Shown here: positions 2,513 through 57,519 of the stretch, piece by piece
Position numbering within the stretch: the stretch's first letter is position 1
Layout: each line of letters starts with the position of its first letter
Virus record (IMG/VR): IMGVR_UViG_3300036760_000945
Span: 1-64,000 of that record
Reading direction: 5' to 3' (one strand)
Length of the DNA stretch: 64,000 nt
From: a virus
Translations under genes and position numbers: made by a program
The notes under the pieces: generated by a model
Told to the model about the DNA's origin: nothing
The model's input: only the letters and a program-made list of their open reading frames with translations
The model's database searches: none

Positions 2513-2764
2513 ATGAGCGACACAATGAGAAACCTTGAAGATCTCATCGCTGAAGAGGTAGGCATCGGTGTCCACACGGGACTACGCAAGTATTGTGGTT
2601 CAATAGAAGCGAACAAGGCATGGCACAGCATTAAAGAGATGCCAAGTAAAGAATGGGAATGCGTATGTGATGGAGTAGCAGAGGAGATAATCAAGGTTCT
2701 ACAAGAGCAGTACGTGAAGGGGAACCTGATCGGCAAGCTATGGCCACCTTTGTGCGTATTGTAA
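2513..2764 (+). CDS. hypothetical protein
   Basis: AAGGAG RBS, promoter upstream. Confidence 0.65.
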   Translation: MSDTMRNLEDLIAEEVGIGVHTGLRKYCGSIEANKAWHSIKEMPSKEWECVCDGVAEEIIKVLQEQYVKGNLIGKLWPPLCVL

Positions 2765-2942
2765 CCAGAAGAAGCCTCTCCAGATGGACCATGTAGTTCC
2801 ACTTTCGAAGGGTGGCAGACATGATATAGATAATATAGTTCCAGCGTGCAAACCATGCAATGATAGTAAGGGAGTTTCTTCACTCTTGGTATTCTTATAC
2901 CGAAGGGCACAATCAAAAAGGAGTATACCAACAATATGCTAA
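2730..2942 (+). pseudogene. 5'-truncated HNH endonuclease remnant
   Basis: Frame not in ORF track reads YGHLCAYCNQKKPLQMDHVVPLSKGGRHDIDNIVPACKPCNDSKG; in-frame stop just upstream and no start before the first CxxC. Confidence 0.8.
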
Positions 2943-3331
2943 AACTCTTTATGGGCAACCCCAGAGAGTTTATTAGACTAATACAATCTGGCATTTTCAA
3001 TCGCCTCACAAAGTTCTTCAATAATCTTGCGGGCAGGACCAGCGCCAGAGCATACCGCCTACTCTATGGCGGAGAAATGCCAGCGGCCCTGCCCAATGTA
3101 GCCACCTTACGAGACGATGAGGTGTTCGTTGTGGTAACTATCTATAAGGGGAGTGTCAGAATTGATGGGATTGTGGGGGCCCCAGAAAATGTGCAGATGT
3201 ACCTGGACAATTACCCGGGCGCAGTTGCCTATGTAAGGCGTATTGATGAATTGAAGCAAAGCGTCATGGGAATAATTACTTCACCGCAAATTTATGCTAG
3301 TGGCAGGAGCGATAAGAAATGGCTACTATAA
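2936..3331 (+). CDS. hypothetical protein
   Basis: AAGGAG upstream; 131 aa. Confidence 0.65.
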   Translation: MLKLFMGNPREFIRLIQSGIFNRLTKFFNNLAGRTSARAYRLLYGGEMPAALPNVATLRDDEVFVVVTIYKGSVRIDGIVGAPENVQMYLDNYPGAVAYVRRIDELKQSVMGIITSPQIYASGRSDKKWLL

Positions 3332-3555
3332 CCGTTTTATCAGATCAGCACCTGATGGTCCTTCTTGGAATATCTCGGCACCAATCCATTCGCGAGATCG
3401 CTGCAATCATAGGCCGTGCAGTTGGCACAGTCCAGCAGAGATTGCACGATCTCGAGGAGGCTGGCCTGATCTCCAAGAGCGTGGCAAGAAAAGCACGTAA
3501 CAGATATCTGACAAGCAGCGGCCAGGCGCTATTGCAGCAGCGCAGGCTCGGCTAG
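3319..3555 (+). CDS. winged helix-turn-helix DNA-binding protein (LexA/MarR-like HTH)
   Basis: SIREIAAIIGRAVGTVQQRLHDLEEAGLI...RYLTSSG. Confidence 0.85.
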   Translation: MATITVLSDQHLMVLLGISRHQSIREIAAIIGRAVGTVQQRLHDLEEAGLISKSVARKARNRYLTSSGQALLQQRRLG

Positions 3556-12913: not shown

Positions 12914-13006
12914 ATTATACCACAGCCCGTCCACATACTCGAGGATTTTCGGGCTAGAAATTCCACTACCCGCAACTTCCCCAAAAGGGCGGCTTTGCGG
13001 TATAAT
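12914..13006. promoter_or_regulatory. divergent promoter pair
   Basis: TGTGGTATAAT on - strand (12914-12924) and TGCGGTATAAT on + strand (12996-13006), each followed by AAGGAG RBS. Confidence 0.7.
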
Positions 13007-13027: not shown

Positions 13028-13366
13028 ATGCAAACAAGAGTCCGCAGTGTGAAGTATCCATGGGGAATCTATCGCCGCAGGGATATCATGAAGAGGAAAT
13101 ATGGTATCACGCTCAGCAAATACTATGACATGTTCGTCCAGCAGAAAGGCAAGTGTGCAATATGCAGTACGCATCAGGATGACCTAGGAAGACTGTTGGC
13201 CGTTGATCACGATCACAAAACAGGCAAGATACGAGAACTACTCTGTGGCCCCTGTAATCATGGACTTGGCAATTTTAGAGATGGCCCAGCGCTTTTACAG
13301 AGGGCCATTAAATACCTCGAAAGGCATACAGGAAAAGGAGCGCAAAATGAACTGTCCACGTTGTAA
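13028..13366 (+). CDS. endonuclease VII-family (His-Me) homing endonuclease
   Basis: KYGIT...QKGKCAIC...LAVDHDHKTGKIRELLCGPCNHGLGNFRD. Confidence 0.92.
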   Translation: MQTRVRSVKYPWGIYRRRDIMKRKYGITLSKYYDMFVQQKGKCAICSTHQDDLGRLLAVDHDHKTGKIRELLCGPCNHGLGNFRDGPALLQRAIKYLERHTGKGAQNELSTL

Positions 13367-27112: not shown

Positions 27113-30100
27113 CTAGCTCCTCAGCTCCTTCGTGACCGCATCGAGGACAAAGGAAGAGAGTTTCTCGTTGCCAATATAGATGTTCACAATCTGTGGCGCA
27201 CCGGCCTTCTTGCCGCCCATTGGAATATAGGATGAACCGCCAGCAATTGTTACGCCGACAGGGCGCTGGAAAAGATTATGAATACGTTTCAGACTCTCCC
27301 ATTCGCTGTGTGGAATTACACGGCCGCCGACGATGCCTTCAGTGCCCTGTTCGCCAACTTCGACTGCGCCACTAGCAAGACCTCGAAGAATACCACCTGC
27401 GGCTTTCATGCTTTCAAGGTTATGAGCCAATACTCCGCCAGCAAAATAGCTATGTGTCTCGTCATCCGTTCCGAAGTTATAGGACGGTACCTGTTCTCCG
27501 TTCCAGGAAAGATCTGTTACAACAACGTCTTTTCCATCTTTGTCCAGTAGCGCATCTCCAAGTCGTAAAGTCTTGGCATGTGCCCACTCGCCATTAATAG
27601 ACATTGGGTGTCCCGCTGTTACGCCAAGGTGCTTATTGATAGTAATATAGCCACAGTTGCTTTTAGCAGAGTGATGAAACACTTTATTGACCCTCGCATT
27701 TACCGGCTCGCGAGTCTTGATATTCATCGAGAGAACCATATCTCCAACCTGAACCTCTTCAATGGGTTTGGTCAAGCCGGCTACCATTGTTATCATTGTT
27801 CCTGCAATGAAGCATGGTGCATTTCCTTCACCTTCGCCATGCTCGGTTGTGACTCCTGGCATCCGTAGAAGTTGATCAATCCACTTTTTGAGAATAGGTA
27901 TAGAAGTGGACATGGCGGTTTGCCAATCCATTAGGGCATCGTCTGTCAATAGACTGAGTGCGCCCTTGGCATTATCGGCATAGATCTGGAACTTGACCAT
28001 TGCGTCGTTCAGATCTTTTTGCTGTTTGGCATAGAAGGCAGTAATACCAGCCGACTCTTTCTCGAGCGCCATCTGCTGGATATACTGTGCGCGTTCGAGC
28101 TTGGTCTGCTCTTCCTGGAGTATCTTGTTCTGCTGGTAATACTCGATGGACTTATCGAGTTGTTCCTGTTGCATCTTTAGATTCTCTTTGAACTGTTTGT
28201 TCTGAAGAGCAAAACGCTGATCTTCAAGTTTCCAGAGTTCCTTCTGCCTATTCTTTTGTTTATCGATCTGCTCACCTTCAAGATCGTGCATAATTGTCTC
28301 GCGGCCCATTTGCCGTTCTGCAAGTTTGCGTTCACGCCCAGTCATGAAACGGATATTTTCGGCGTAGTCTTCCTGGCGCCAGCCCCACTGAAGTTCGCGT
28401 GTTTGGGTCTGATAGCCCCAGTCTTGCTGTGTCCAGCCGCGTTGCATTTGCGTACCGCGTTGATTGAGTGCCATGTTCTCCTGGAACTGCTGCGCGCCAA
28501 GGTTCATGCCTCTCTGCTGAAAACCGAATTGCCATCCCTGTTGTTGATAACCAAGTGCGCGTTGTGCGTCCTGCAGACCCCAAGTACCGCCCTGGTACAA
28601 CGGCCCAAACGGCTGCCCGGTCTGTGGATTGATTGTACCCGCATATTGTTGTATGCCAACGCCGGTCGTAAAGGCCAGATTCTGATTTACACGTTTCATC
28701 GCCAGGCCAGCAGAGGCCATTGCCTGATTGTACTGAGACTGGTTCTGCATGAACTGTAGTGCATACTGGCCACCAATATTGCCAATTGTTTCACCGCTGG
28801 CAAGTGTCATTGGCCCACCAGGAATTGCAATACCACCAGCCATGCCAGCAATGAAGGGTGCAGCCAGGCCGGTAGAGGTTTGCCAGTTTCTACCCCAGAT
28901 CTGTTGTGCAGTCTGGAGTCCAGTCTGGCCAACCTGTGCCAAACTACTCTGTCCCCAATTCAAACCTGTTGGCTGGTTGGTCCCCATACGTATATCGGTC
29001 AAGGCCATATTGTTAATACCCATAGTCTGGCCAGTGATCATGGGGAAGCGCTGGGCCATCAACTGTGGCGATATTCCGCCCGTTGCAGCAAGTGCAGCAA
29101 CTGCAGTTGGTTGTGCATTATACAACTGGTTATAGAACCATTCCTGGCCTTTGGGCATTGCACCAGAAGTGAACTGTTGATATAACTGGTTGCCGAGTGC
29201 AGGACGGTTAAATTGATAGGCTTGCTGTTGTAACTGCGCACCAATACCAATGCGATAATTGGCCTGAGCCTCCTGGGCACTCCAAGTCGCAGTCTGGCGA
29301 GCTGCTTCTTCTGGCAACATAGCGACAGCCTCACCACCAGATATATATTCTGTCTGAAGAGGTGCGGGAGTCCTAGTTAGACCTGCTGCGCGTTGTGCCA
29401 TCCATGCAGAGTAACGCGCCTTATAAACATCTCCAGCGGGTTTATTGTAAAGAATACCATTGGCTATTTGGTTATCCAGATACTTTTTCATATCTGTGTC
29501 TGTTCGAAGTTGACTTGCCGTTGTGACATTTCCAGGAAGCCACGCTGCAGCTGCACCAAAACCACTCGTGTATTGTCCACCAAGTCCCAATAGTGCTTGT
29601 TGGTTTGCAGTTGGATAGTTTTTACTAATATAGTTGGCCAGAGCACCCTGAACTGTAGTGGTTACCCCGGGAATAAGTGCAGTCCCTGCCGTTGTTTGTC
29701 CAAGAGCAGGCGGTCCCTGCAGGGTTCCATAAAGAGGAGCTGCCGCAAATGCACCTGCACCCATACCAGAGGCAGACAAAATACCTGCTGCCAGTTCACC
29801 TGGTTGCATACCTTGTTGATATTGTTCAGCAAAGCGCTGCCAATAACTCTGCGGAAGGTTTTGGTTTGAAACCAGAGTAAATGCTTTGGCAATTGCATCA
29901 GGAGCCAGATCTGTTCTTTGGCCCTGAGCGATCTGCATTGTTGTAGAAAGTGCTTTAACATATTGAGTTGTTCCAGGAAGAGTGCCAGCAAGTTGCCACA
30001 TTTGTGCATTGGGCTGTCCTGACATCATCTGGCGTAGAACTGTCCATTTCGCTGTTTCTTTATCCTGATCGGTACCACCTAGGCCAGCAGCAATACCTGT

Positions 30101-33100
30101 CGTAGAAAAAACAGTCAGGAAATTCTGCAGGGAGGCATATGCCCCACCAGTAGCAGCAACCTTTGACATTTGGTAGGCCACGGTTTCGGGGGCTTGCATT
30201 TTTTGATAAGTTTGTGCAGCTATATTAAGTCCTGCAACGCCCGCAGCAAGCGCAATTGCACCGGGGCCCTTTGCAAAACTCATCATCCCCGTACCTTCAC
30301 CTGCCCACTGGCCAAATTGTTGAGTAATAGCATAGGCACCAAGCCCAGCTACTCCCGTAGAAGTAATGTCGGATAGTAATGGGTTTTGCGCTATTATCAT
30401 CTTTCCAGCAGTTACTGGGTTGACCTGGGCACCATAAAGTGCAGTTATATTCTGTGCTGCACGTAATTGGTTATAGGGCACATAAGCAGCTCCACCTGCT
30501 TGCGAGGCAGCACCAGCAAAGGTATCTTGCATTGCCAACGCTTCTTGTTGACCCTGTCCTACACCACCCGTTATCATCCCCGCAATACGGGCCATGTACA
30601 TCATGCCCCAGCCCCCTAGCGCTCTCCTTAGAAAGGATCCTCTAAACAACTGTGGGGTACCGGTTATATCCTCCTGAAGTTCGCCCTCTTGCCTACCAAG
30701 ACGACCCAATTCGCCTTCTGCTCTGCGTATCTTGCTGGGTAGACCAGGTTCTACTGCACCGGCTCTATATTGTTCACGATAACCAGCAAGTTCTGCTGTT
30801 ACTGTTGCCCTTTGCTGCTGTACTTCAGCAAGTCTTATTTGCCGCTCAGAATTCTCATACTGCTTGAGTTCGGCCTTGTTCATATTTTCAAGAGAACCGC
30901 CGGCCTTATCGAGTAAACCTTTCTGTCTCTCCATTAACTGGTTATATTTCTCGACAGACTCTATTGGCAACTGGATCAGCTCTTTGGCGCCCGCGCCACG
31001 TCCGCGGCCAGCACCGCCAGTAGTACCCAAGTCCTCACTTCTACCAAGAATTGGGGAGCCAAACACACCCAGTTGCTGAAGTGCATCATAGGTCGCGCCG
31101 CCGGCTACAGCACCAGCCCGCAACATTTCATATTCTGCACCGGCACCCAGGCCCAGTTTCTCTGTAGCATATTTGAAAGCGCGTTGCACCTGTGGTGCAT
31201 TTGCGCCAATGCCCTTAAGCAGTTTCTGCACAGGGGCAATAGCAGCGCCAAACTGCTCAGGGGCATTCTCCAGGGCCCAGCCAATACGTTGGTACATCTC
31301 TCCTGCAGGTGCACCAAGTTGAGTTAAAACACCCTCAATGCCAGCCCGCATAGGTTCAAGATATGGCCTGGCGCCCTGTAACCACGCTACAGTAGCTTGA
31401 TAGTCACGCGAACTCATATAGGGAGGTTCTTGTAGTTCTCCAAAGGAACTCCATCCTCTGCCACCCCCACCGCCTCTACTTCCACCCGCGCCTCCACCCT
31501 GACCGCCACGCCAACCGCCGCCGCTCGGCGGTCTATTGCCGCCGCCGGCCATCATTCGAAGATCGGCTTCTCTTTGTTGGGCCCGCGCCGATGGAATATC
31601 TTGCTCTCTGCGGAAGCGCTGATAGGCCTCAGCATCCATTTTCGTCTGCTCAGGCGTCTTTGTTGGATATTCAGTTGCCCTCTGTGGCGCACCTGTAACC
31701 GCAGTTGCCGCCTGGCGCTGGCGCTCAATCGCAGCCTCTATTTGCCGATTTAGCCCTTGGCTTTCTTCTACCTTGCCAGGATCAATTATATCGGTACCAG
31801 GAATAAATGTTGCAGTAAGTTTTGTTTTGAGAGAAGCAATTGTATCCTCTGCTACACCAAGAGGAATACCGGTGCCAGCAAGCATTGTTTCCCAGGGCGC
31901 TCGAGCGGCAGCAGGTAGAGTAGCCATGGCCGCTGTAATTTCATGTCCGCCAGGGATTTTGCCTGCCATAAGATTTGCAATTGTACCCGTGGCCTGCCAC
32001 TGCTTATAGAGTTCAGGGAACTTCTCTTGGAACTTCGCTCCAAGTTGGAGAGCGCCAGCCTTTGTCGTCGCCATGCCGCCGAGAGCAGTCATGATAGGTA
32101 GTCCCATCATTTCGCCGTAGCCCTGTTTCTCTAGTTGTTGCCACAGGACTTCTTTTCTACCGGCAATTGGTACACCCTGGAGTTGCTTGAGCAAACCCTC
32201 ATAGCCACTTGCAGGTGCAAACATACCCGCAAGCATCTCGCTTGCAATCGGGTAATACTCTTTGCCTTTCTCTACGATCGGACGTGTAGCAATATCGGCA
32301 ATGCCATGTAGAAAGTTAGAAACCCCGCCTGCGGCAGCGCCCTCGGCACCTAATACATATTTGCTCTTGTAGCGTCCACCAGCACCCAACACGCCAGCCA
32401 TTAGTTCGCCCTCGGGGGTAAACTTGGCACTACCAAGCAGAGAAGCAAAAGGTACGCCGCTCTTGCCTGTAAGCCACTTATCGAGACCTGTCTGGTAGGG
32501 CTGTATCAAGCTCTCTGATACATCTGCAATGGTTTTGGCAGAATAGCCAGCCATTTGCATTGCAGGATACATGGGATTGCGGATATTATAGGTCTGCCCC
32601 ATAGTTGCCTGTGAATACACTGCCATTTGGCGGTGCACAGCCTGTGCCTCTTTCATACCGCCCCATTGTAGATCATTGCCCTTGCCAAGAGGATCAACGC
32701 CCTGAATAACATCCTTCATCGCATTGAAGGTCGAGGACGATCTCTGGTAAATACCAACATCCTGGAAGCGTGCTTTTGCTATACCCGTGGCCTTTTCGGG
32801 GGTCAGGGCTGCATTTTCTTTCCAGAAATCCTCGGTTGCAAAAGTTTCTAGTTTGCCCTCTGGAGTTCTACGCAACATCTGAATTACCGTTGCGATATCC
32901 CTGTCCAGATCGCCCTGAGAGGCTTGCGTACCCGCGGCAAAACCAACAAAAGCGCCCCCTCTATTCTCGGGGTTTGCGAGTGCGGCAGCCGCGGCCTCAG
33001 AGCCAACGCGAGCCGCATATTCACCATAGCCAATTTCCCGCATGGCCAGAGAACTCTCCGCGCGCGAACCTACGGGAATACGGGTAAAGGTAGCTGCGAG

Positions 33101-36091
33101 TTTGCCAGATGTGGCAATAGTTTCATATTGCTGCCTGGCACCGGGCAGCTCGCTCTCCGCAAAACCAAGCCTGCGAAGCACCAGATCCCTTGTATCGGGA
33201 GCCATAAGCATTTCGTTTGTCTGTAATCCGGGCAGACTTGCATAACGCAATGTTGCGCCACTCGGTACTTCCCTGGAGGCGATCTCTTTATAGGCCTCGC
33301 CTCGCTCAGAGAAGTTCTGTTTGAAGAGATTATATAGACCTGCAATACCACCAAGGGCAGCAGTGCGAGAGCCGGCCTGCTCCGCTGCCACGGCAGCCCT
33401 AAGTGCCTTGAAATAAGTACGCCCACCACCGCCGATCTCGGTCCCAAGTGGTGCATACTGCAGTTCCTGCATTGCCCTGGGTGCCACAAGCGAAACACCT
33501 GTCCTTGGGAAATAAGGTACGCCAGCAGTCTCTCCGGCATCGCCAATAACACCACGAAAAGCCTCAAGGCGCTCACGAGAAGGCATGCCTCGAGTGCCCT
33601 CTAGGACTGCCGAGGCCCGTTGCAGCAACGCGGGCGTCATCTCGATCGCGTTTTCTGGTCTATAGCCTTGCCCAGCCGCGACAGACTTGGTTTGTGCATA
33701 GAAGCCAAAGGCCTGTTTCCAGGCGCCCTGCATTCTTGTAGCGTCGCCGGGCACAGTATTCAGTAGGCCTAACCACTTTGACATCTCCGGCCATTTCTGC
33801 GATAGGCCAGCACCAAGTTCCATATTTACACGTGCGCGACCGGCATACTCGGGTACCATGTAGTTCATTGTTCTTGCATAGGGTACAGCACCTGCAGCAG
33901 TCTGTGTTAGAAGTGGATACTCGGCGCGGTTTCCCTCTACATCAGCCAAGATGGAAGTTGCTATCTGACTAGGCGTACCACCCTCTGCAGAAGTAGAATA
34001 TCTCTGTCTTGCAGCCGCCTCAAGTTGTGCCTCGGTAGCATTCTTGAATTCCGGCATAGTGCGCAGAACCTCTTTGGCCTGCATCGTCATGAAGTTGATC
34101 ATGTCTGGTGAAGCACGATAAGAGAAGGAAGGATCTCGCACTAACCCAATCTCGTGTTCCCTTAGATGGCGAATATTCTCAGGAGACTCCGGCGTCACGC
34201 CCTTGAAGAAAACCGTATTGAAAATATCCGCAGCCGCCTCCATACCCGTACCCGTGAAGGGCACATCGCTCTTTCGGGTCTGTCTTTGCCAGTATTGCCC
34301 AAGGCGTTCAAGATCTAACTGCATACCACCGGCGCCCTCGGGGAAATTCTTCCCAACCCAGCGAGACAACCTGGCTGCTTCTGGCGTACCAGTCTTACCT
34401 GCATATTCCTGGAAGATATTGAGGATCTGCGAGCGGGACTGCGCTGCCATGATGCCCATAACGTCCATTATGCCGGCACCCTTGACCTCGCCATGTACGT
34501 CGGTCACTGGTAGGTTAAGACCGCCTTGCTGGACAGAAGCAGTTGTGCCGGCAGAGAAAGCACCGATTTTCTCCCCAAGTCCACGCGCCTTCGCGCCAAC
34601 ATCATAAGCCATGCCATAAGCAGAGAGGTTTACTGTACTGATGTTGGATCTGTTAATTATAAGATCGGGGTATTGTGCCTGGAGTTGTGCAACTAGAGGC
34701 TCGGTAGAAACTCCCTTCGCTACGGCCTTACCCGTTACCGGATCCCAGAAAGAGGGAATATTCAAGTAGGCGGCACGTACCTGGAAATTGCTAACAGAAC
34801 CAGCCACGCCCATGAACTTACTGGGTTCGCCCACCTCGGTTGGGCGTCCAATAATTTCCTCTTCACCCCTTGGTAGTCTGAACCTGCCAAGTGTCAAACC
34901 AGGACCGCCAGCAGGCACCGTTCTACCAACAAGTCCCTTCTGAATTGCCAGAGAGCCCGGCCCCTCACCAAGTAGGGTGCGTAAGTCCTCTACTGGAATA
35001 TCGGGAGAGACATAGCGGCGTTGAAAACCAAAAGTCAGATTCTCGGGGCGTGCAGGATTCTCATAACTTACTGCTGCACCGGGGATGCCCGTGGGTGCAA
35101 ACAGGGTTCTTCTAAGTTCACCAATGCGCCCCTCTTTCTCTCCGGGGTAGAGAATATTGGCTCTCGCAAGATATTGTTCTCCGCCCGGAGTAATAACCTC
35201 GGGCTTGATGGCCCTCAACATAGGCCGACCCGTAGAATAATCCATCACATAGGCATTGGCTTGCTGTGTGCCGAAGAAGAGAGAAGAGGATTTGAAGGTT
35301 TTCTCGGGCTCGCGTGGGCCGAGCATTTCCCTGGTCAGAACTGTTTGCTCGCCAGGCTGGCCCGCATAAGTACTTCTAACACCACCGGCACCACCAAAGG
35401 CCTGTGGCTCTAGCATCCCAGACTTGCCATACATGAGACCATATTTAGCCAGCTCGGTCCAAGTATATGGCTTGCCCTCTACGATTCTCCCTGAGAGAGA
35501 GGCAATCCTTGCCTCAATATCTTTCCCAACATTCCCAGGCACCCAGGGTGGTATATCTTCAGCCTTGCCAGTTGTACTCTCGAAAGCAAACTGAACACGC
35601 CCCTGCATTCTCTGTCTTTGTGCAGCGCCTTGTGGGTTCCAGACATCAAGATATGCAGGGGGGATACCCAACATAGTATCGCCATAGGACAACAGTCTAC
35701 TAAAGGCTTTCTCTGCTGTTTCCCCAGGCCGCTTTGTCCCAAATGCGCCAGAGACAGTCATTGCCAGGCGCTCCGCAGGAGAAAAGACCTGTGGTGTCTC
35801 AGCGTATTCTTCTGTCTTCGGATTTACGCGAAACTTGAAAAAGCCAGTTTCCACATAGGGTTGCTGGCCTGCTGTTTGCCTGCCGATAAGATAAGTCTGT
35901 CCTAGAGGCCCCCCATATCCTTCTGCAATATCCAAAGGCAGCGTTTCCCCACTACCGCTCATTGTGATAAAGTAACGTGGATATTTCTCTACAAGCTGCC
36001 GCGAAATAGCATATTCGCCGCCCAGCATACTCCGTAATCTGGCAGTGATCGGATCGTTCTCTTGGCTGGAGAATGGAACTCTAAGTGGCAT
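27113..36091 (-). CDS. tape measure protein with putative N-terminal two-barrel RNA polymerase domain and C-terminal Hint domain
   Basis: ~2990 aa after tail chaperones; Ala/Gly/Gln-rich coiled coils; C-terminal AAGG...VGEQGTE motif; GAKARGLGEK, FTRIP and QGDLDRD motifs; AGGAG RBS before ATG 36091. Confidence 0.85.
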   Translation of the reverse strand: MPLRVPFSSQENDPITARLRSMLGGEYAISRQLVEKYPRYFITMSGSGETLPLDIAEGYGGPLGQTYLIGRQTAGQQPYVETGFFKFRVNPKTEEYAETPQVFSPAERLAMTVSGAFGTKRPGETAEKAFSRLLSYGDTMLGIPPAYLDVWNPQGAAQRQRMQGRVQFAFESTTGKAEDIPPWVPGNVGKDIEARIASLSGRIVEGKPYTWTELAKYGLMYGKSGMLEPQAFGGAGGVRSTYAGQPGEQTVLTREMLGPREPEKTFKSSSLFFGTQQANAYVMDYSTGRPMLRAIKPEVITPGGEQYLARANILYPGEKEGRIGELRRTLFAPTGIPGAAVSYENPARPENLTFGFQRRYVSPDIPVEDLRTLLGEGPGSLAIQKGLVGRTVPAGGPGLTLGRFRLPRGEEEIIGRPTEVGEPSKFMGVAGSVSNFQVRAAYLNIPSFWDPVTGKAVAKGVSTEPLVAQLQAQYPDLIINRSNISTVNLSAYGMAYDVGAKARGLGEKIGAFSAGTTASVQQGGLNLPVTDVHGEVKGAGIMDVMGIMAAQSRSQILNIFQEYAGKTGTPEAARLSRWVGKNFPEGAGGMQLDLERLGQYWQRQTRKSDVPFTGTGMEAAADIFNTVFFKGVTPESPENIRHLREHEIGLVRDPSFSYRASPDMINFMTMQAKEVLRTMPEFKNATEAQLEAAARQRYSTSAEGGTPSQIATSILADVEGNRAEYPLLTQTAAGAVPYARTMNYMVPEYAGRARVNMELGAGLSQKWPEMSKWLGLLNTVPGDATRMQGAWKQAFGFYAQTKSVAAGQGYRPENAIEMTPALLQRASAVLEGTRGMPSRERLEAFRGVIGDAGETAGVPYFPRTGVSLVAPRAMQELQYAPLGTEIGGGGRTYFKALRAAVAAEQAGSRTAALGGIAGLYNLFKQNFSERGEAYKEIASREVPSGATLRYASLPGLQTNEMLMAPDTRDLVLRRLGFAESELPGARQQYETIATSGKLAATFTRIPVGSRAESSLAMREIGYGEYAARVGSEAAAAALANPENRGGAFVGFAAGTQASQGDLDRDIATVIQMLRRTPEGKLETFATEDFWKENAALTPEKATGIAKARFQDVGIYQRSSSTFNAMKDVIQGVDPLGKGNDLQWGGMKEAQAVHRQMAVYSQATMGQTYNIRNPMYPAMQMAGYSAKTIADVSESLIQPYQTGLDKWLTGKSGVPFASLLGSAKFTPEGELMAGVLGAGGRYKSKYVLGAEGAAAGGVSNFLHGIADIATRPIVEKGKEYYPIASEMLAGMFAPASGYEGLLKQLQGVPIAGRKEVLWQQLEKQGYGEMMGLPIMTALGGMATTKAGALQLGAKFQEKFPELYKQWQATGTIANLMAGKIPGGHEITAAMATLPAAARAPWETMLAGTGIPLGVAEDTIASLKTKLTATFIPGTDIIDPGKVEESQGLNRQIEAAIERQRQAATAVTGAPQRATEYPTKTPEQTKMDAEAYQRFRREQDIPSARAQQREADLRMMAGGGNRPPSGGGWRGGQGGGAGGSRGGGGGRGWSSFGELQEPPYMSSRDYQATVAWLQGARPYLEPMRAGIEGVLTQLGAPAGEMYQRIGWALENAPEQFGAAIAPVQKLLKGIGANAPQVQRAFKYATEKLGLGAGAEYEMLRAGAVAGGATYDALQQLGVFGSPILGRSEDLGTTGGAGRGRGAGAKELIQLPIESVEKYNQLMERQKGLLDKAGGSLENMNKAELKQYENSERQIRLAEVQQQRATVTAELAGYREQYRAGAVEPGLPSKIRRAEGELGRLGRQEGELQEDITGTPQLFRGSFLRRALGGWGMMYMARIAGMITGGVGQGQQEALAMQDTFAGAASQAGGAAYVPYNQLRAAQNITALYGAQVNPVTAGKMIIAQNPLLSDITSTGVAGLGAYAITQQFGQWAGEGTGMMSFAKGPGAIALAAGVAGLNIAAQTYQKMQAPETVAYQMSKVAATGGAYASLQNFLTVFSTTGIAAGLGGTDQDKETAKWTVLRQMMSGQPNAQMWQLAGTLPGTTQYVKALSTTMQIAQGQRTDLAPDAIAKAFTLVSNQNLPQSYWQRFAEQYQQGMQPGELAAGILSASGMGAGAFAAAPLYGTLQGPPALGQTTAGTALIPGVTTTVQGALANYISKNYPTANQQALLGLGGQYTSGFGAAAAWLPGNVTTASQLRTDTDMKKYLDNQIANGILYNKPAGDVYKARYSAWMAQRAAGLTRTPAPLQTEYISGGEAVAMLPEEAARQTATWSAQEAQANYRIGIGAQLQQQAYQFNRPALGNQLYQQFTSGAMPKGQEWFYNQLYNAQPTAVAALAATGGISPQLMAQRFPMITGQTMGINNMALTDIRMGTNQPTGLNWGQSSLAQVGQTGLQTAQQIWGRNWQTSTGLAAPFIAGMAGGIAIPGGPMTLASGETIGNIGGQYALQFMQNQSQYNQAMASAGLAMKRVNQNLAFTTGVGIQQYAGTINPQTGQPFGPLYQGGTWGLQDAQRALGYQQQGWQFGFQQRGMNLGAQQFQENMALNQRGTQMQRGWTQQDWGYQTQTRELQWGWRQEDYAENIRFMTGRERKLAERQMGRETIMHDLEGEQIDKQKNRQKELWKLEDQRFALQNKQFKENLKMQQEQLDKSIEYYQQNKILQEEQTKLERAQYIQQMALEKESAGITAFYAKQQKDLNDAMVKFQIYADNAKGALSLLTDDALMDWQTAMSTSIPILKKWIDQLLRMPGVTTEHGEGEGNAPCFIAGTMITMVAGLTKPIEEVQVGDMVLSMNIKTREPVNARVNKVFHHSAKSNCGYITINKHLGVTAGHPMSINGEWAHAKTLRLGDALLDKDGKDVVVTDLSWNGEQVPSYNFGTDDETHSYFAGGVLAHNLESMKAAGGILRGLASGAVEVGEQGTEGIVGGRVIPHSEWESLKRIHNLFQRPVGVTIAGGSSYIPMGGKKAGAPQIVNIYIGNEKLSSFVLDAVTKELRS
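27419..27814 (-). other. Hint auto-processing domain (132 aa, BIL-type; +1 residue is Leu)
   Basis: CFIAGTMI...IEEVQVGD...VTAGHP...LRLGD...YNF...YFAGGVLAHN/L. Confidence 0.9.
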
Positions 36092-36356
36092 TTGCAGAGG
36101 CTCCTGGTATACTTTCCATAATAGCAATTTGTTGTTCTATCACCGACCACTCCAAGAGCCAGATATGTGGTTGGTCGAGTACCCCACCGGCAACAAGTGG
36201 AAGGCCAGTAGATCTGCATCTTTCATACAAGGTCATAGCCTCAGGTTTTTCTGGGAAATCAACCTTGAGGCCTGCCTTCAGTTCATTGAGTAGACCATAA
36301 TATTCTCTAATCTCGTCTCGTAACTTCTCCAATTTCCCCGCGACTAGGCTTCCCCC
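36081..36356 (-). CDS. tail assembly chaperone, -1 frameshift extension (gpGT-like)
   Basis: Overlapping -1 frame ORF between chaperone and tape measure; LPLVAGGVLDQP motif. Confidence 0.75.
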   Translation of the reverse strand, partial: GGSLVAGKLEKLRDEIREYYGLLNELKAGLKVDFPEKPEAMTLYERCRSTGLPLVAGGVLDQPHIWLLEWSVIEQQIAIMESIPGASANAT

Positions 36357-36763
36357 ATCGGCCCAGCCCACAGAGGATTCATCTCGAGGACTTTATCGTG
36401 GATCTCTTCGGCGACTATTGGAGGAAGCCCCGCCCAGCCTCTCTTGAAGGAGGCCGGATCTACCTTGCCGTCCTTGAAGAAGAAGGTCGGCTTCCCATTA
36501 TCATTCTCGATATTGCAGCCCACCATTGTCAGCTCTACCTCTCTGCGATAGAGTTCCTCGGGGGAAAAGTGCTGAGATACAGTTAATTGGTCGCCATCGA
36601 AGACGCGGGTGAACTCCGACAGTAACGCATTGCGCACCTCACATTGGCCTTGAGTTGCCTGGCGGATACGGACAGTAGTATGATCATCCTTGACATCATA
36701 TTCTTTGTCCGTCTTCTCGAGGATGAAGTCTTTCTCGATTGGTGCAGTTAGTTTTAGTGCCAT
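36344..36763 (-). CDS. tail assembly chaperone (gpG-like)
   Basis: Between tail tube and tape measure; AGGAG RBS. Confidence 0.8.
   Translation of the reverse strand: MALKLTAPIEKDFILEKTDKEYDVKDDHTTVRIRQATQGQCEVRNALLSEFTRVFDGDQLTVSQHFSPEELYRREVELTMVGCNIENDNGKPTFFFKDGKVDPASFKRGWAGLPPIVAEEIHDKVLEMNPLWAGPMGEA
36350..36356 (-). other. programmed -1 frameshift slippery site GGGGGAA
   Basis: ATG GGG GAA GCC TAG at the end of the chaperone; -1 frame stays open. Confidence 0.75.
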
Positions 36764-36845: not shown

Positions 36846-37922
36846 TTAGGTCGGCCAGATGTATTCCGGGACCAGGTTGCGCAGCGTGAAGGTTGCATAG
36901 GCGATATCGGGATCAGTCTCAAGTGCTACACCAGCAAAGCGCAGCAGGATAGACTGGTTGCCAGCCAGGGTAAGGCCGCCAACCTGTGACATCATGACTT
37001 TGTTAGCAGCAACCACCAGTGAATAGGGTTCAATGTCCTCGGGTGTATTCATCGGAGAGACGGCCTTGACCTCGAAGGATGTGGTATACGGCTTGCCGGA
37101 CCACTCAGTGCCAACAGCACTACCGGTCAGAAGGGCAGCATAAAGATCGGGGTTGTTCCATTTGACGGTCATATCGTAGGCCAAGCGCCGCTGAACGATC
37201 GTCACATCCTCAAGGAATGGACTGCCATAGACACGCTCTTGACGAATATCAAGAGGCACATTCTGGAAACCGACGGTTGCGGCAACCACAGGCAGCTCGT
37301 CGCCGCCATCGCCAATCTTGAGCCAGCCACCAGTCTGGCAACCTACGGGAATTGATTCCCAGGACTCGAACTCGTTTTCCCATGACCACTGGTCCGGTGC
37401 ATGATCGAGCTCGAACTCGCGCCCGAGCACATCGACACGCATCGTCAGTGGCGCGTCGTTGGGTAGTACCAGTGAAGCACCCACGATCTTGCAATCCCTG
37501 AAGATCTGGCCCAGATCGGTGGCCGGATTAGCCTCCTTGGGCGGGATATGCTTACGGAAACTCATCCAGGGGACATAAGATGGCTCAGCGGCAAAACCGA
37601 AGATATGCTTGACGATGTTCTCTGAATAGTCGTAGTCGTCATCATCACTATCAACAGCACCCATGAGACCATACAGCAACCAGCCAAGTGTACTTTCAAG
37701 GCGCGGCTGGATCGTAAACCCGCCAGCAACCACGGGTCCGGCCTTATAGGGGAAAGTTGGCACGGGCACGCCGCCAATCTCCGGGACGCCTTCGCGAACT
37801 TCATCCATCACGTCCAGGTCGACCATGGTAGCCCGATGTTTGTACCAGTAGGGCGGACTGAAATCGCCCATGCCGGCTTGGGGGGCAAAGCCAATTATTG
37901 CCGAAGCAGCGGTAATTCCCAT
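36846..37922 (-). CDS. major tail tube protein
   Basis: 358 aa; position; LGWLLYGLMG and FTLRN motifs typical of tail tube proteins. Confidence 0.8.
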   Translation of the reverse strand: MGITAASAIIGFAPQAGMGDFSPPYWYKHRATMVDLDVMDEVREGVPEIGGVPVPTFPYKAGPVVAGGFTIQPRLESTLGWLLYGLMGAVDSDDDDYDYSENIVKHIFGFAAEPSYVPWMSFRKHIPPKEANPATDLGQIFRDCKIVGASLVLPNDAPLTMRVDVLGREFELDHAPDQWSWENEFESWESIPVGCQTGGWLKIGDGGDELPVVAATVGFQNVPLDIRQERVYGSPFLEDVTIVQRRLAYDMTVKWNNPDLYAALLTGSAVGTEWSGKPYTTSFEVKAVSPMNTPEDIEPYSLVVAANKVMMSQVGGLTLAGNQSILLRFAGVALETDPDIAYATFTLRNLVPEYIWPT

Positions 37923-41566: not shown

Positions 41567-43087
41567 TTAAGCTACGATAGGCTCGGTATCCTTTCGGATA
41601 CCCGGTTTCTTGCTATTATCGGGCAGATTGCCTATGGGTTTTTGTGGTGCAGCCGCAGTCTCTTCCTTGATCTTAACCTTCTCTTCTTCGATGTCAGGAA
41701 TGTCACCAAAGAGGGACATGAGATGCTCCTGCGAGCCTAACTTGTATTTCGCGCGGATGCCAGCCTCATTGATAAGTGCAGTACGATCTACAGGCAACAT
41801 CGGTGCCCAGGAAATGATAAGCGGTGTAGCAATATGTTCCTCTGTGATCTCGTTGATACCCTTGATAGACATCATCTTCAATAAGATCCTGCAGAACTTA
41901 GCCAGGCCGACTGTCCAGAAGATGCGCTCCATCTCAGCGTGTGTGACCAGCGGCCACATCCTTGTAGAGAGGGTCAAGCTCGAACGTTGCGAACCCTCGT
42001 CTTCCCCATCTGCAACTGCCGGATGAATGGCCTCGCGGCGATAGATATCGTAAAGTTCTCCGCCAAGTCTAAGCATTACATCCGAAGCAGTTTTGAGAGA
42101 GACCGTCAGTAGGTCCGGGTTTGCCTCATTACCCGCAAGGCCTGTAGTACTGCCAAGGTCAAGGATGGGCCGGCCATCTATCTTCTTGACCTGTACAGCG
42201 CCTCTTACATTGCGCATTGCAATTGGCTGATGCGAGTCGTCGCTGACCGCATCGCCGGTATCTGCCCAGCGTAAGTTTATTTCTCTGATAACACCCTTGA
42301 TCATCTCAGAGATAATGGAGTTGCCAAGGAATGTAGTTGTCCGTAAGTGTGGGATATATTCTATTGGGACAACCCCAAAGGGATTTACGCCCTTTTGAGG
42401 CGTGTCACCGAACATGATTGTCTGCCCGTTGATCGCAATCTCGTATTCTTCTTCTGTCCAGTGTTCCGTATAGAAATACTTGAGGTCATTCTCGCTAAGG
42501 GCATACTCGGTCTTATAGGACTTGATATCGTCTTTGGTAATCTCCCTAACGATCCAGGCCTCTCTTAGCTCCCAATAATTGGCGCCTTTGGGAAAACCGA
42601 TGAACTCTTTTGGCGAGGGATTGAAAATGCCAATCCGCTTTTCTATTGGCAGCCAACTAGCACTAAAGACACAGCCGCGGAGGTATTGCGAGATAATTCC
42701 ATTCGAGATGAATAATGCGCCGCCGCCGTTGTCTTCAAAGACATTTTTCAGTGCCTTCTCGACCGCCTTGCCTTGTGTTTTCTTGCCCTTCTCTACATCA
42801 GCCAATATTCTGACCGGTACGCCTCCGTAGTGAATGCTGTCCAGTGTCTGCCCGAATAACGCCGATGTATGTCGCTCACAGGTACCCTTCAGCGGATTGA
42901 TCTTGATAGGGTATTTATCTATCTTCTTCCCGGAGGCAGTATCTACGGTGAAGTCGTCCAATTTGGCGCCGGAATACCAATCCTCGAGCATGGCATAGTT
43001 CTCGAGTTGGGTCATATAGGTCGTATACGGGAACCCCTTGAGTTCCTGAAGAGTAAAGGGTGCAGAGAAGTTTGTTAGCTCAGCCAT
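41567..43087 (-). CDS. portal protein (SPP1 gp6-like)
   Basis: NPFGVVPIEYIPH...GNSII; ISWAPMLPVD; size and position. Confidence 0.88.
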   Translation of the reverse strand: MAELTNFSAPFTLQELKGFPYTTYMTQLENYAMLEDWYSGAKLDDFTVDTASGKKIDKYPIKINPLKGTCERHTSALFGQTLDSIHYGGVPVRILADVEKGKKTQGKAVEKALKNVFEDNGGGALFISNGIISQYLRGCVFSASWLPIEKRIGIFNPSPKEFIGFPKGANYWELREAWIVREITKDDIKSYKTEYALSENDLKYFYTEHWTEEEYEIAINGQTIMFGDTPQKGVNPFGVVPIEYIPHLRTTTFLGNSIISEMIKGVIREINLRWADTGDAVSDDSHQPIAMRNVRGAVQVKKIDGRPILDLGSTTGLAGNEANPDLLTVSLKTASDVMLRLGGELYDIYRREAIHPAVADGEDEGSQRSSLTLSTRMWPLVTHAEMERIFWTVGLAKFCRILLKMMSIKGINEITEEHIATPLIISWAPMLPVDRTALINEAGIRAKYKLGSQEHLMSLFGDIPDIEEEKVKIKEETAAAPQKPIGNLPDNSKKPGIRKDTEPIVA

Positions 43088-43747: not shown

Positions 43748-46414
43748 CTATCGAGGCCACGTCGTTGACGAACCTGCCTCGTCTCGCCTGCGGGTACGTA
43801 CTTCATTTCTATCATGTCGGCGCCCCGAGACAAGTCCAGGGCTATCATCGCCAGTCTCGCTGCTGTTTTCCTCTCCAAAATCGCCATAATAAGCCCGGAT
43901 CGCAAACGCACCCATTGCCAACGTTGCAACAACGTCTTGCGCCAGCTTGCCACCACTTGCTTTATCCGCGATAGGATCATAGTTTTTTAGTTGGCTTCCT
44001 ATGCCAGTACAGATCGAAGGCCATGAGAGCATCTTGCTTTCGAGCGATAGTCTCAGTGCAACAAGGTAACTATACCTTTTTGCGCCCGAAAAGTCAAGAC
44101 CGGTTATTGAAATGACCGACTTCTTCTTGCCGTAGATATAATCCGTGCTGATCAGCTCCGCCGTACTCTTCTGGGGCCCGGTATTGTCCACGGCAGCCAA
44201 TATGGGTCCATAAGTATCGATCCACTCGATAAAACGGCTCACAAAAGGCATGATCGAGCCTGCGCCATTACCCCACCAGAAAGCAACTATTGGACTATGC
44301 ACTGGCGCCTCTGTGACATCAAAAACGATGATACAGGGAGCATTTCGGGAGGGTGCCACGCCTGTGCCTGGGTCGCCAATGATGAAATATTGGCGTCCTG
44401 CCTTACGTGGCTGTCTGAGATAGAACGCACCCATGTGCGGCAAGGTCTCCATCTCATAACCAGCCTCGCCTTTGTCGATGGCATTCAGGACTATCTCTGA
44501 TTGCCCGGCATCCAAGCAGGGATCAACAGTCGAGGCCGGGAAGTAAGAACCCTTACCCTGTGGGCGGTCCCCGGTCATGAAACGGTTGTGCAGTTCTTTG
44601 GGGATCATCTTCAGCGCAAAGCGGATCTGTTTATCGGTCGTATTCTTGTTATACTTGGTGTCAATGTTGAATACCAGCCCGTCCTCTTTGTCCGCTGCTG
44701 CCATATCATAGAGTTGCCACAGCTCGGGGTTTTCCCACGGGTTAGAGATGAGCGAAAGCCGGCCTAGATAGGGGCGGTTCTCGGCAGTGCCGCCAGTAAG
44801 GCGGGTGACTAGGTTTGTCACCACCACCCCCAAATCGTCTATTTTCCCGGCTTCTTCGATATTGATCCAGTCGCCGCGGTAGGAAAAGATGTTTTCTGCA
44901 GTCCCCTCCTCACCCAATGTCTGAAATTCCAGAAGCGAGGAGAATTTCTTGGTGCCAATATAATACTCGAGGGCAACCTGCGGCCAGGGGCGCTTTGGCG
45001 CAGAGACAATGAGTTTTTCAAAGGGTGTGCCCTCGACCTGCTCCATTAGCGCTCGATACATAAGCATTGACTGCCAGGCACTGGGTGCAACATTCATAAA
45101 CTTGAATAATTGCGTCAGCGCCGCATGATAGGCGGCACCCATCACCACGCCGACGGTTTTGCCAGAATTATGAGAGACAACACCCTCCATAACATAATTT
45201 TCGTAGCCGGGAACATGGATATCATATAGATCTATTTCTCCAACATCCTCTATTTTAGTAATAATTGGTGTATAATAGTCCCACTTATTATTCTTGGGAG
45301 AGAAACATGGATCAGGAAGAACTTCAAATACTTGTTGATCAATTTGGGACACAGACGGCTGTAGCAAAGCGCCTCGGGATAAGACAGCAAGATCTCTGGT
45401 ATCTGGTAAAGAAAAATCACTGGCATATTCACTATGATATAACTCGCCGCAGAAAGAAGGGCTCGAAACTTGATCCTTATTCTCTAATACTGAAACATCT
45501 GGGAGATCTTGGTTGGAGTTGCCAGAGAATTGTTGATGCCCTCGAACTAAAGACCGATCCTGAGCACGTTCGTCGCTGGTTGGTTGTCCATTGTCCCCAA
45601 AAACGGAACAGGAAGCACGGTGGTGTGGGGGAAAGAAGTCCTGCCTTTGTCGATGGTGACTATTATAATAGGAAGGATAATTCTTATAACTTTGTACCCG
45701 CGCCAGAGGGGTATATGGGTCAGAAGAAATCAAATGGTTGGGTTGCAGAACATCGTCTTGTCGTTGAAAAGGAACTTGGCCGACTTCTTCATCCGGGCGA
45801 GGTTGTACATCATATTGATGGGGATGGAAAGAATAATCTCCCTGGAAACCTGATGACTTTCCCGACAAATCGCGAACATCTACTGTGGCACTGGGAGCAA
45901 ATGCAGGCAAAATATGAGGAGCGATTAGAACATCTCCGAGCCGTAGATCGCGAGTACGTACAAACCCTTGGCTGGCAGTCATAAAACGATGATCCAGAGA
46001 GACGGTAATTGTATTACCATTAGAGAAGGAAAGTCTTTTTGCCCTGGCCTTTCCCTTGTAGAACGGCAGTGTTGCCTGGACCATTGCCCATCCTGATATG
46101 CCGCGGGCTAAAACAACTGGCGCCCTCTTATTATCAAGAAGCCACCTAAATGATACATATCTCCCAAGTTCTACATCATAGAGATGACTATCAATGTCGG
46201 CGCAACTGATCCCACAGATGGCAACAATAAACGATTGCGTTGCCATACACATTGTTTCTTGCCATTTACCCTCTGACTCGAAGTTCCAGTCCAGCATCCA
46301 TCCGTGTTCTTGGTTTGGTTTTCTGAACCAGTAATCACAGAAAATATTGGGATTGGCCGCCCCGGCCCTAAGAATTTCAATCTCGGCAGCAGTCATTGCG
46401 TGAATCGAGGGCAT
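43748..46414 (-). CDS. terL: terminase large subunit with intein
   Basis: Spliced Walker A GIS/SGKT; VAPS..QS; Walker B WINIEEAG; LISNP; nuclease IIGDPG, AVDNTG, QDVVATLAM. Confidence 0.9.
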   Translation of the reverse strand: MPSIHAMTAAEIEILRAGAANPNIFCDYWFRKPNQEHGWMLDWNFESEGKWQETMCMATQSFIVAICGISCADIDSHLYDVELGRYVSFRWLLDNKRAPVVLARGISGWAMVQATLPFYKGKARAKRLSFSNGNTITVSLDHRFMTASQGFVRTRDLRLGDVLIAPHILPAFAPSATVDVRDLSGKSSGFQGDYSFHPHQYDVQPRPDEEVGQVPFQRQDDVLQPNHLISSDPYTPLARVQSYKNYPSYYNSHHRQRQDFFPPHHRASCSVFGDNGQPTSDERAQDRSLVRGHQQFSGNSNQDLPDVSVLENKDQVSSPSFCGELYHSEYASDFSLPDTRDLAVLSRGALLQPSVSQIDQQVFEVLPDPCFSPKNNKWDYYTPIITKIEDVGEIDLYDIHVPGYENYVMEGVVSHNSGKTVGVVMGAAYHAALTQLFKFMNVAPSAWQSMLMYRALMEQVEGTPFEKLIVSAPKRPWPQVALEYYIGTKKFSSLLEFQTLGEEGTAENIFSYRGDWINIEEAGKIDDLGVVVTNLVTRLTGGTAENRPYLGRLSLISNPWENPELWQLYDMAAADKEDGLVFNIDTKYNKNTTDKQIRFALKMIPKELHNRFMTGDRPQGKGSYFPASTVDPCLDAGQSEIVLNAIDKGEAGYEMETLPHMGAFYLRQPRKAGRQYFIIGDPGTGVAPSRNAPCIIVFDVTEAPVHSPIVAFWWGNGAGSIMPFVSRFIEWIDTYGPILAAVDNTGPQKSTAELISTDYIYGKKKSVISITGLDFSGAKRYSYLVALRLSLESKMLSWPSICTGIGSQLKNYDPIADKASGGKLAQDVVATLAMGAFAIRAYYGDFGEENSSETGDDSPGLVSGRRHDRNEVRTRRRDEAGSSTTWPR
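45167..46204 (-). mobile_element. intein (346 aa) in the terminase Walker A, lacking an in-frame endonuclease
   Basis: CADIDSHL...VSLDHRFMT...DLRLGD; LYDIHVPGYENYVMEGVVSHN/S; central part has no recognisable motif in this frame. Confidence 0.92.
45307..45984 (+). CDS. HTH-HNH homing endonuclease encoded antisense inside the terminase intein
   Basis: GGGAG RBS, TATAAT at 45271; TQTAVAKRLGI HTH; EHRLVVEKELGRLL..GEVVHHIDGDGKNNLPGNL HNH motif. Confidence 0.92.
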   Translation: MDQEELQILVDQFGTQTAVAKRLGIRQQDLWYLVKKNHWHIHYDITRRRKKGSKLDPYSLILKHLGDLGWSCQRIVDALELKTDPEHVRRWLVVHCPQKRNRKHGGVGERSPAFVDGDYYNRKDNSYNFVPAPEGYMGQKKSNGWVAEHRLVVEKELGRLLHPGEVVHHIDGDGKNNLPGNLMTFPTNREHLLWHWEQMQAKYEERLEHLRAVDREYVQTLGWQS

Positions 46415-57447: not shown

Positions 57448-57519
57448 GCCCCTATAGCTCAATGGATAGAGCAACTGCCTTCTAAGCAGAGGGTCTGGGT
57501 TCGAGTCCCAGTAGGGGCA
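57448..57519 (+). tRNA. tRNA-Arg(TCT), CCA not encoded
   Basis: GCCCCTA/TAGGGGC acceptor stem; GCTC/GAGC D arm; CTTCTAA anticodon loop; CTGGG-TTCGAGT-CCCAG T arm. Confidence 0.93.

Follow-up and report, generated by a model that had tools for sequence, protein, structure and literature searches.

The giant gene and its parts

The stretch analysed here, hereafter the window, comprises the first 64,000 nucleotides (64 kb) of IMG/VR virus record IMGVR_UViG_3300036760_000945, a single-contig genome of 82,851 bp with a G+C content of 49%. On its minus strand lies a giant gene that occupies the place of a siphophage tape measure gene, and the N-terminal ~1,400 residues of its product are, with high confidence, a homologue of the two-barrel RNA polymerases (RNAPs). 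The gene is a single uninterrupted open reading frame (ORF; 27113-36127, minus strand), open from a TTG at 36127 and closed by a stop codon at 27113-27115. The ATG at 36091 is its likely start (MPLRVPF) because homologues begin with MP and an AGGAG lies 10 nt upstream; the RNAP-tape measure fusion so delimited (27113..36091) is 2,992 amino acids long, and the database gene call (P0002; 2,971 amino acids) is identical to it. Residue numbers given below are those of the translation counted from the TTG at 36127 (P0001), from which 12 is subtracted to obtain the numbering from the ATG.

The protein begins with a domain (residues 25-245; 35393..36055) predicted to resemble the protrusion-side N-terminal part of the RNAP subunit beta/Rpb2, followed by a beta-strand-rich region (residues ~330-560; 34448..35140) which, given its invariant lysines and structural alignments, is the candidate beta-like double-psi beta-barrel (DPBB), or DPBB-B. 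The predicted beta'-like catalytic barrel, DPBB-A, was placed at residues 952-1109 (32801..33274) by superpositions of a structure model. It is succeeded by a helical region (residues 1158-1418; 31874..32656) delimited by DSSP assignment of that model, by conservation and by alignments to beta'/Rpb1. This region holds the invariant residues D1216 and G1224 and a 35-residue helix (residues 1158-1192) with a conserved GMGxxYN1181xR, which on the basis of the model is a candidate for the bridge helix. The preliminary description of this DNA had placed a Gly-rich linker between the polymerase region and tape measure sequence, and a Gly/Arg-rich, low-complexity linker was indeed found at that boundary (residues 1528-1559; 31451..31546).

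Beyond the linker, the tape measure proper (residues 1563-2770; 27818..31441), assigned by gene position and architecture, is composed of Ala/Gly/Gln-rich, low-charge stretches and carries both a conserved GGFGLMYMRSI-type motif (residues 1838-1850) and a conserved RFMTGRxRRLAERQMGR block. It is followed by a Hint domain (residues 2771-2902; 27422..27817; Pfam PT-HINT, E = 1e-12, above the curated cut-off) and by a C-terminal tail (residues 2903-3004; 27116..27421) that is kept across the family and ends in IYIGNEKLSSFVLDAVTKELRS. Together, the Gly-rich linker and the Hint domain could permit processing of the protein. The earlier suggestion that the pairing with a Hint domain marks a distinct lineage did not hold: Pfam detected the domain in 3-4 of the 16 family members only, and hence it is not tied to the polymerase. 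With one relative (P0004; 3,235 amino acids), an extra insert with a weak Cas4/PD-(D/E)xK nuclease-like Pfam match (PF01930, E = 0.014) was observed between the polymerase and tape measure parts, and exchange of accessory domains seems to take place at the linker in this family.

The tape measure position

The genes surrounding the fusion form a siphophage late block on the minus strand, in the order portal, capsid, adaptor, tube, chaperone with a -1 extension, giant gene and distal tail genes. The large terminase, which contains an intein splicing domain, is encoded at 43748-46414 and the portal at 41567-43087. A capsid-sized gene (478 amino acids) is situated between portal and tube and precedes an SU10-type adaptor. 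The tail tube protein (36846..37922) was recognized by a Pfam Phage_tube_2 match just under the cut-off (E = 2e-5) and by PHROG 290. The tail assembly chaperone (139 amino acids; 36344-36763) was assigned from its size and the G/GT-type arrangement, as it is overlapped by a -1 frame extension (36081-36371) that ends across the tape measure start codon. A chaperone -1 frameshift would be expected from this classic arrangement upstream of a tape measure gene, and a GGGGGAA at 36350-36356 (minus strand), located where the extension overlaps the final part of the chaperone gene, is likely the programmed frameshift site, though it is unlike the canonical XXXYYYZ heptamer.

Downstream of the tube gene, and between the chaperone pair and the distal tail genes, the giant gene thus fills the slot of a tape measure. 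The same gene order was found around the homologue P0006 on an IMG/VR contig of 88.7 kb (L002). A match to a curated tape measure family was sought in both Pfam and PHROGs and none was obtained, Pfam giving the Hint domain only, and for this reason the identification of the protein as a tape measure rests on gene position and architecture.

Conserved motifs of the N-terminal module

All of the motifs quoted in the preliminary description were found at, or within 3 bases of, the coordinates given there. The DLDRD motif lies exactly where it had been placed, at residues 1073-1077 (32897..32911), after a conserved G1072, and its D1073, D1075 and D1077 form the candidate Mg2+-binding triad. A DxDxD turns up in 2% of composition-preserving shuffles of the 1,488-residue N-terminal part, and what gives it significance is its conservation in the family: none of the three Asp is replaced in any row of alignments whose mean column identity is 22-24%, and a DxDxD is found once per relative, at the corresponding place (GDFDLD in P0019). 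In the family consensus, G-D-(F/W/Y/L...)-D-x-D, there is free variation at positions 2 and 4. DLDRD is consequently one instance of this consensus, and not the special non-canonical variant that it had been taken for.

Conservation around the triad was also consistent with a catalytic center of the beta' type. Against residues 300-1490 (1,191 query positions), seven positions are invariant, including the three Asp and P1018; the latter is retained in 16 of 16 rows, and R1016 in 15 of 16. These two residues belong to ATFTRIP (residues 1012-1018; 33074-33094), where R1016-x-P1018 (33074..33082) takes the position of the 'NRxP' strand of beta'. Further upstream, K947 and E972 are each present in 14 of 16 rows, and both a basic residue at 951 and G957 are conserved; these fit the comparison drawn earlier between the IASREVPSGATLRYASLPGLQTNEMLMAP stretch (residues 949-977; 33197-33283) and the KR..SGR...E stretch of beta'.

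Six residues are invariant in the N-terminal part (E330, G350, G401, P458, K520 and K549), with K520 and K549 being so in a 14-row alignment (A3). The preliminary description had compared GAKARGLGEKIG with the twin-lysine motif of beta; this stretch (residues 511-522) starts at 34562, as proposed, and ends at 34597 rather than 34600. Its second lysine, K520 (34568-34570), located in GEKIG, is the invariant one, whereas K513 (in GAK) is mostly K or R across the family. The second invariant lysine is instead K549 (34481-34483), found 29 residues beyond K520 in HGEVKG (34478-34495). G546-E547 are likewise conserved in the candidate beta-like barrel.

Predicted structure

Two structure models were analysed. 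The first, an AlphaFold model of residues 300-1490 built from a 16-sequence alignment, had a mean predicted local distance difference test score (pLDDT) of 72.6 and a predicted template modelling score (pTM) of 0.66, with the pLDDT of the barrel region mostly 79-92 and that of the portion from model residue 1170 onward below 50. The second model covered residues 13-640 (pLDDT 67). In addition to Foldseek, VIA, an aligner independent of it, was applied to both models; with this aligner, the first was compared with 48,161 representative chains of the Protein Data Bank (PDB).

When the first model was searched with Foldseek against the PDB, the best 50 matches were all to beta'/Rpb1-type chains, and the phage RNAPs of AR9 and PhiKZ were matched with probabilities of 0.99-1.0. 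With VIA, ranks 1-14 of the 48,161 chains were all occupied by two-barrel RNAPs (Z 7.4-9.2); in an unbiased search, the overall fold was thus closest to that of solved RNAPs. They included QDE-1 (Z 9.2; 313 residues aligned over model residues 36-1121), Mycobacterium tuberculosis beta', human Pol I and plastid PEP (each Z 9.0), Pol II (Z 8.9), the vaccinia (Z 8.8) and Sulfolobus (Z 8.7) enzymes, AR9 (Z 8.6), PhiKZ (Z 8.1), and P74-26 gp62, a member of the family paralogous to the P23-45 enzymes (Z 7.4). The alignments to beta'/Rpb1 run to model residue ~1119 (residue 1418), and those to the single-chain RNAPs (QDE-1, P74-26 gp62 and RDR2) begin at model residues 27-36 (residues 326-335).

The next ranks were taken by plain DPBBs, namely designed DPBB proteins, CDC48-N, VAT-N and expansins, which superpose on model residues 657-810 (residues 956-1109) with Z values of 6-7.2 and root-mean-square deviations (rmsd) of 2.2-2.5 A; with 7dww_A, 84 of 86 residues were aligned (Z 7.2, rmsd 2.2 A). 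This barrel segment, which also matches the catalytic region of beta'/Rpb1, holds both the R-x-P and the Asp triad. The triad is modelled between a helix (model residues 764-770) and the last barrel strand (778-784), as is NADFDGD in beta'. An invariant DxDxD loop of metal-binding type thus lies within a predicted DPBB, and neither of the outcomes that the preliminary description had named as contrary to its proposal was obtained, a DPBB fold being predicted and the Asp and Lys residues being conserved among homologues.

The second model led to the other large subunit. Its Foldseek matches were almost all RNAP beta chains, at weak E-values of 0.03-0.6. With VIA, residues 13-233 were aligned to the N-terminal part of beta/Rpb2, again weakly (Z 4.2-6.2; ~170 residues; rmsd 4.3-4.7 A), the matches spanning bacteria, archaea, Pol I/III, vaccinia, African swine fever virus and phage AR9. 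Taken singly, each of these scores is weak, but the finding of two different large subunits by two non-identical models, in the right order, is hard to explain other than by a relationship to RNAPs. The proposal of a tape measure protein with an N-terminal two-barrel RNAP module, beta-like and then beta'-like with a DxDxD, is hence backed by the conservation of the motifs and by both models.

A Foldseek search of predicted viral structures (BFVD) gave significant matches (E = 6.6e-10 to 4e-4) to pieces of giant phage proteins, and those listed included crAss-like phage proteins (E = 7e-6 to 1e-2) and, from an uncultured siphovirus, a protein annotated as 'minor tail protein'. Further matches were to unannotated proteins of two Microcystis phages, MaMV-DC (E = 1.6e-8) and Ma-LMM01, and of the Acinetobacter phage ME3. 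In MaMV-DC (KF356199), ORF82L (66652-77334; L005:11653-22335, minus strand), located near the capsid gene, encodes a 3,560-residue 'hypothetical protein' that holds the only DFDGD of that genome, at residue 2537, as found by a DNA pattern search. A protein search in MaMV-DC was empty and hhalign of ORF82L to the family was not significant. If it is the protein matched by Foldseek, ORF82L may be a virion two-barrel RNAP that has gone unrecognised in a cultured cyanophage.

A family of fused proteins

A HMMER search with residues 300-1490 against 1.84 billion representatives (E up to 1e-3) returned 16 proteins, consisting of the protein's own cluster representative, 14 real relatives (25-33% identity) and P0018. 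The last of these, the weakest match (E = 1e-5), was set aside as it contains no DxDxD. A homologous-protein search added P0003, with 87% identity to the query region, as well as P0019 (3,802 amino acids), and otherwise returned only the protein's own cluster. In total, 16 relatives were obtained, for a family of 17 members including the present protein, with identities of 22-33% (87% for P0003). The relatives are 1,471-3,802 amino acids long, most of them 2,700-3,500, and were joined by a single fragment of 424 residues; the alignments are shallow (14-16 sequences).

In thirteen of the relatives (2,734-3,802 amino acids), which come from other samples, a single ORF likewise encodes both the N-terminal module and the C-terminal tail. 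Given that the N-terminal ~1,400 residues and the C-terminal tail are shared in this way, the fusion is a trait of the family and not an accident of assembly. A search for shorter proteins found proteins of 146-756 residues that match the C-terminal part and may be either complete short tape measures lacking the polymerase or fragments. In tblastn searches of 50,697 phage records, for which the two ends of the protein (N-terminal and C-terminal) and two divergent members (P0016 and P0013) served as queries, no relative from a cultured phage was detected, and a related-locus search in IMG/VR with the window protein and P0004 gave no match. A look-up of sequencing runs indicated that the DNA occurs in sediment metagenomes, the best run, possibly the source sample, containing 100% of the sampled words; no RNA run was present among the listed runs that carry the DNA.

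Transcription setting of the genome

Just upstream of operons on both strands, 13 extended -10 elements of the form TGNTATAAT (mostly TGGTATAAT) were located, where ~2.5 would be expected. Within the window they are found at 2480, 7597, 8663 and 60634 on the plus strand and at 12922, 43560, 50285 and 56719 on the minus strand, with the others lying beyond 64 kb. The 82.9-kb genome has no second polymerase-like ORF of at least 200 residues bearing a DxDxD, and no alpha- or omega-like RNAP partners. As most operons have host-type promoters and a second phage RNAP is absent, the phage probably depends on the sigma70-type polymerase of its host for the transcription of most genes.

Both AATATCTT and TCCAASTTGGA were considered as promoter motifs and rejected, being scattered in coding DNA. 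The latter, a near-palindromic 11-mer, TCCAA(G/C)TTGGA, is present in nine copies in the genome, mostly in coding regions and on both strands (window 3558, 18244, 23022, 32039, 41013 and 63739; genome 68557, 70508 and 78117), and it could be a methylation/restriction-type site or a protein-binding site.

Other features of the window were also recorded. At the end of the plus-strand replication block, an 894-residue protein (13203-15887, plus strand) gave several zinc-ribbon matches and contains neither another recognisable domain nor a DxDxD. A DUF5131 protein with a LAGLIDADG-type insert (10778-12544, plus strand) is encoded by the second intein-bearing gene besides that of the large terminase and, with GIY-YIG/NUMOD3 and HNH homing-type genes elsewhere, it marks the genome as rich in selfish elements. 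A single tRNA-Arg(TCT) gene (57448-57519, plus strand) is situated in the region of small, presumed early, genes.

Interpretation

The family is read as a new, sequence-distinct one with the known architecture of a tape-measure-fused virion RNAP, published previously only for phage P23-45 and its close relatives. That the module is also an active, tail-delivered DNA-dependent RNAP is considered probable, by analogy with gp96 of P23-45. It would have the layout of a single-chain RNAP, with a beta-like N-terminal domain, a beta-like barrel bearing two lysines, a helical connector, a beta'-like DPBB and bridge-helix-like helices, and the Gly-rich linker would join it to an ordinary tape measure body, the Hint domain and the conserved C-terminal tail. 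The three Asp (D1073, D1075 and D1077) would bind the catalytic Mg2+. The protein would be built into the tail like any tape measure and, if it behaves as gp96 does, it would leave at infection ahead of the DNA, such that its polymerase end could transcribe the first-entering DNA independently of the host RNAP. With host-type extended -10 promoters on most operons and no second phage RNAP, the role of the virion enzyme is presumably limited; it may serve a small set of pre-early genes or help to pull the DNA in, leaving the rest to the host RNAP.

A number of results weigh against the identification of the module as a polymerase, or against its activity. With all 16 members, Pfam (E up to 10) detected no RNAP family (RNA_pol_Rpb1/Rpb2 or RdRP), PHROGs gave no match to the whole protein, and PDB sequence and family-profile searches, 8H2M and 8H2N included, returned low-complexity noise only. 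An alignment of the family with P23-45 gp96 by hhalign was not significant (probability 0.4-0.9%), its best local alignment, likewise non-significant, pairing R-x-P with FRNP and GDxDxD with DFDGD. Between families of phage two-barrel RNAPs, no detectable sequence link is normal, and phage single-chain RNAPs usually have no match to a curated-family profile (Chaban et al., 2024; PMC10770324). Among the structural results, the Foldseek E-values of the first model against the PDB started at 4e-3 and were never below 1e-3, low pLDDT (about 50-61) was obtained for the loops that contain the Asp triad and the two lysines, and the beta-like region (residues ~330-560) did not match an isolated DPBB. 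P23-45 gp96 (8H2M/8H2N) was absent among the matches listed in the structure searches, as was phi14:2 gp66. The structural scores are middling (best Z 9-10), and in this range single matches may be fortuitous; the case is made by the uniformity of the matches. Finally, k-mer enrichment in intergenic DNA revealed the host-like TGGTATAAT only, and no phage-specific promoter class.

A genuine two-barrel fold might serve another activity, such as QDE-1-like RNA-dependent synthesis, primase- or PolD-like DNA synthesis, or a DNA-tracking motor for genome entry. The best single structural matches are RNA-dependent enzymes (QDE-1, Z 9.2-9.9; RDR2, Z 7.1), host-type promoters lie before operons on both strands and no phage-specific promoter motif was found, and the large ORFs scanned included no obvious gene for a DNA polymerase. 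However, the Z values of QDE-1 and of the DNA-dependent beta' subunits are tied within 1 unit, PolD is absent from the matches listed, and the characterised phage single-chain two-barrel enzymes covered in PMC10770324 (P23-45 gp96, gp64 and crAss-like gp66) are all DNA-dependent RNAPs. A different activity is accordingly regarded as unlikely.

Loss of activity would leave the module as a structural relic, whose role might be that of an ejection or pilot domain, of a binder of DNA ends or of a plug. Tape measure proteins often bear accessory domains, and both the low confidence of the modelled active-site loops and the variability of motif position 4, which is Gly in cellular enzymes, would be in keeping with a catalytically dead protein. 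Position 4 also varies in active phage enzymes; the motif of crAss-like gp66 is DFDID. Moreover, seven invariant columns at 22% mean identity, the Asp triad and P1018 among them, together with a near-invariant R1016 and two lysines invariant in A3, present the pattern of a working active site, and a relic is thus judged quite unlikely.

It is less plausible still that the module has no relationship to polymerases, the models being biased or wrong and the DxDxD belonging to some other metal-dependent enzyme or to a Ca2+ site, for instance in a cell-wall-degrading or nuclease domain such as tape measures often carry. The negative outcome of every sequence-based search, the Foldseek E-values against the PDB and the shallow alignments would be explained in this way. 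It would not account for two separately predicted, non-identical pieces each matching a different one of the large RNAP subunits, with the N-to-C order being right, for an aligner independent of Foldseek ranking 14 RNAPs at the top of 48,161 chains, or for the superposition of the DxDxD barrel on minimal DPBB domains at 2.2 A, and no hydrolase or nuclease fold was present among the matches listed. As for an artefactual fusion, in which an assembly chimera or a sequencing error joined separate polymerase and tape measure genes, the genome is a metagenome assembly from sediment, but the 13 independent relatives with both ends in one ORF, the sequencing run containing all sampled words of the stretch, though possibly itself the source sample, and the single ORF of P0006 on its 88.7-kb contig leave it with next to no credence.

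The reading of the module as a tail-delivered RNAP may be carried further, to a scheme that is attractive yet doubtful. In it, the family would be an independent mesophilic lineage, lacking a second phage RNAP and having host-type promoters on nearly all operons, whose tape-measure-anchored enzyme acts mainly as a transcription-driven motor and starter at the membrane pore, pulling the genome in while producing a few pre-early transcripts. Coupled entry and transcription would then be widespread in environmental siphophages and no peculiarity of Thermus phages, and the beta-like N-terminal domain would point to a fused beta-beta' enzyme of cellular type as the ancestor, and not to the QDE-1/crAss clade.

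Beyond the one published group of Thermus phages, the same architecture is now seen in uncultured phages, in a family of no fewer than 17 giant proteins unrelated to it in sequence. This suggests that polymerase injection by way of a long non-contractile tail either evolved on several occasions or is an old and widespread trait. To reconstructions of how two-barrel polymerases evolved, the family would add a new and very diverged branch. It would also supply a single-chain enzyme of compact size that possibly has a new promoter specificity, and a test case for the storage in, and passage through, a tail tube of an enzyme of ~160 kDa. The 'hypothetical' N-terminal halves of other oversized tape measures merit structural screening.

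Comparison with known systems

Like tape measures of the lambda gpH and T5 pb2 type, the protein is encoded after the tube and a frameshifted chaperone and has a long Ala/Gly/Gln-rich body with a conserved C-terminal tail; unlike them, it is twice the usual length on account of its 1,500-residue N-terminal enzyme module. With the multisubunit RNAPs, including the split enzymes of AR9 and PhiKZ, it shares the succession of a part resembling beta/Rpb2 in its N-terminal model and a following part resembling beta'/Rpb1, as well as the motif series K...R/K, E, R-x-P and DxDxD. The subunits are here fused in one chain and much reduced, and they match no Pfam RNA_pol domains.

As predicted for the present protein, both barrels are found in one chain, and in the same order, in QDE-1 and RDR2 and in gp66 from phi14:2, a crAss-like phage (PDB 6VR4). 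Structurally, QDE-1 ranks first among the matches (Z 9.2-9.9; ~280-317 residues over model residues ~31-1122), whereas none of the three has sequence similarity to the present protein, and QDE-1 functions in RNA silencing. The virion RNAPs of crAss-like phages likewise belong to very large proteins that are ejected (PMC10770324), but these phages are podovirus-like and their enzyme lies outside the tape measure.

The closest parallel in architecture is P23-45 gp96, a tape-measure-fused virion two-barrel RNAP, flat and clamp-less in shape, with the polymerase at its N-terminus, also known from P74-26, G20c and TSP4 (Chaban et al., 2024; PMC10770324; PDB 8H2M, 8H2N). Its active fragment comprises residues 327-1124 with a DFDGD at 779-783; virions contain the polymerase within the full-length protein, and it transcribes the pre-early genes (PMC10770324). 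The activity and packaging of gp96 were demonstrated experimentally, whereas we infer both for the present protein, which has no detectable sequence similarity to gp96, carries GDLDRD in place of DFDGD and has an additional N-terminal part of ~300 residues resembling beta/Rpb2. It also contains a Hint domain, a metallopeptidase domain was not detected in it, and its genome, derived from a sediment metagenome (a mesophilic environment) and not from a Thermus phage, lacks a gp64-like second RNAP. In both phages, nevertheless, a giant siphophage tape measure gene encodes an N-terminal polymerase module with the tape measure body after it, and in both modules a beta-like barrel, here a candidate one, precedes a beta'-like barrel whose DxDxD lies at a comparable distance from the N-terminus, at residue 779 in gp96 and at 1061, counted from the ATG, in the protein described here.

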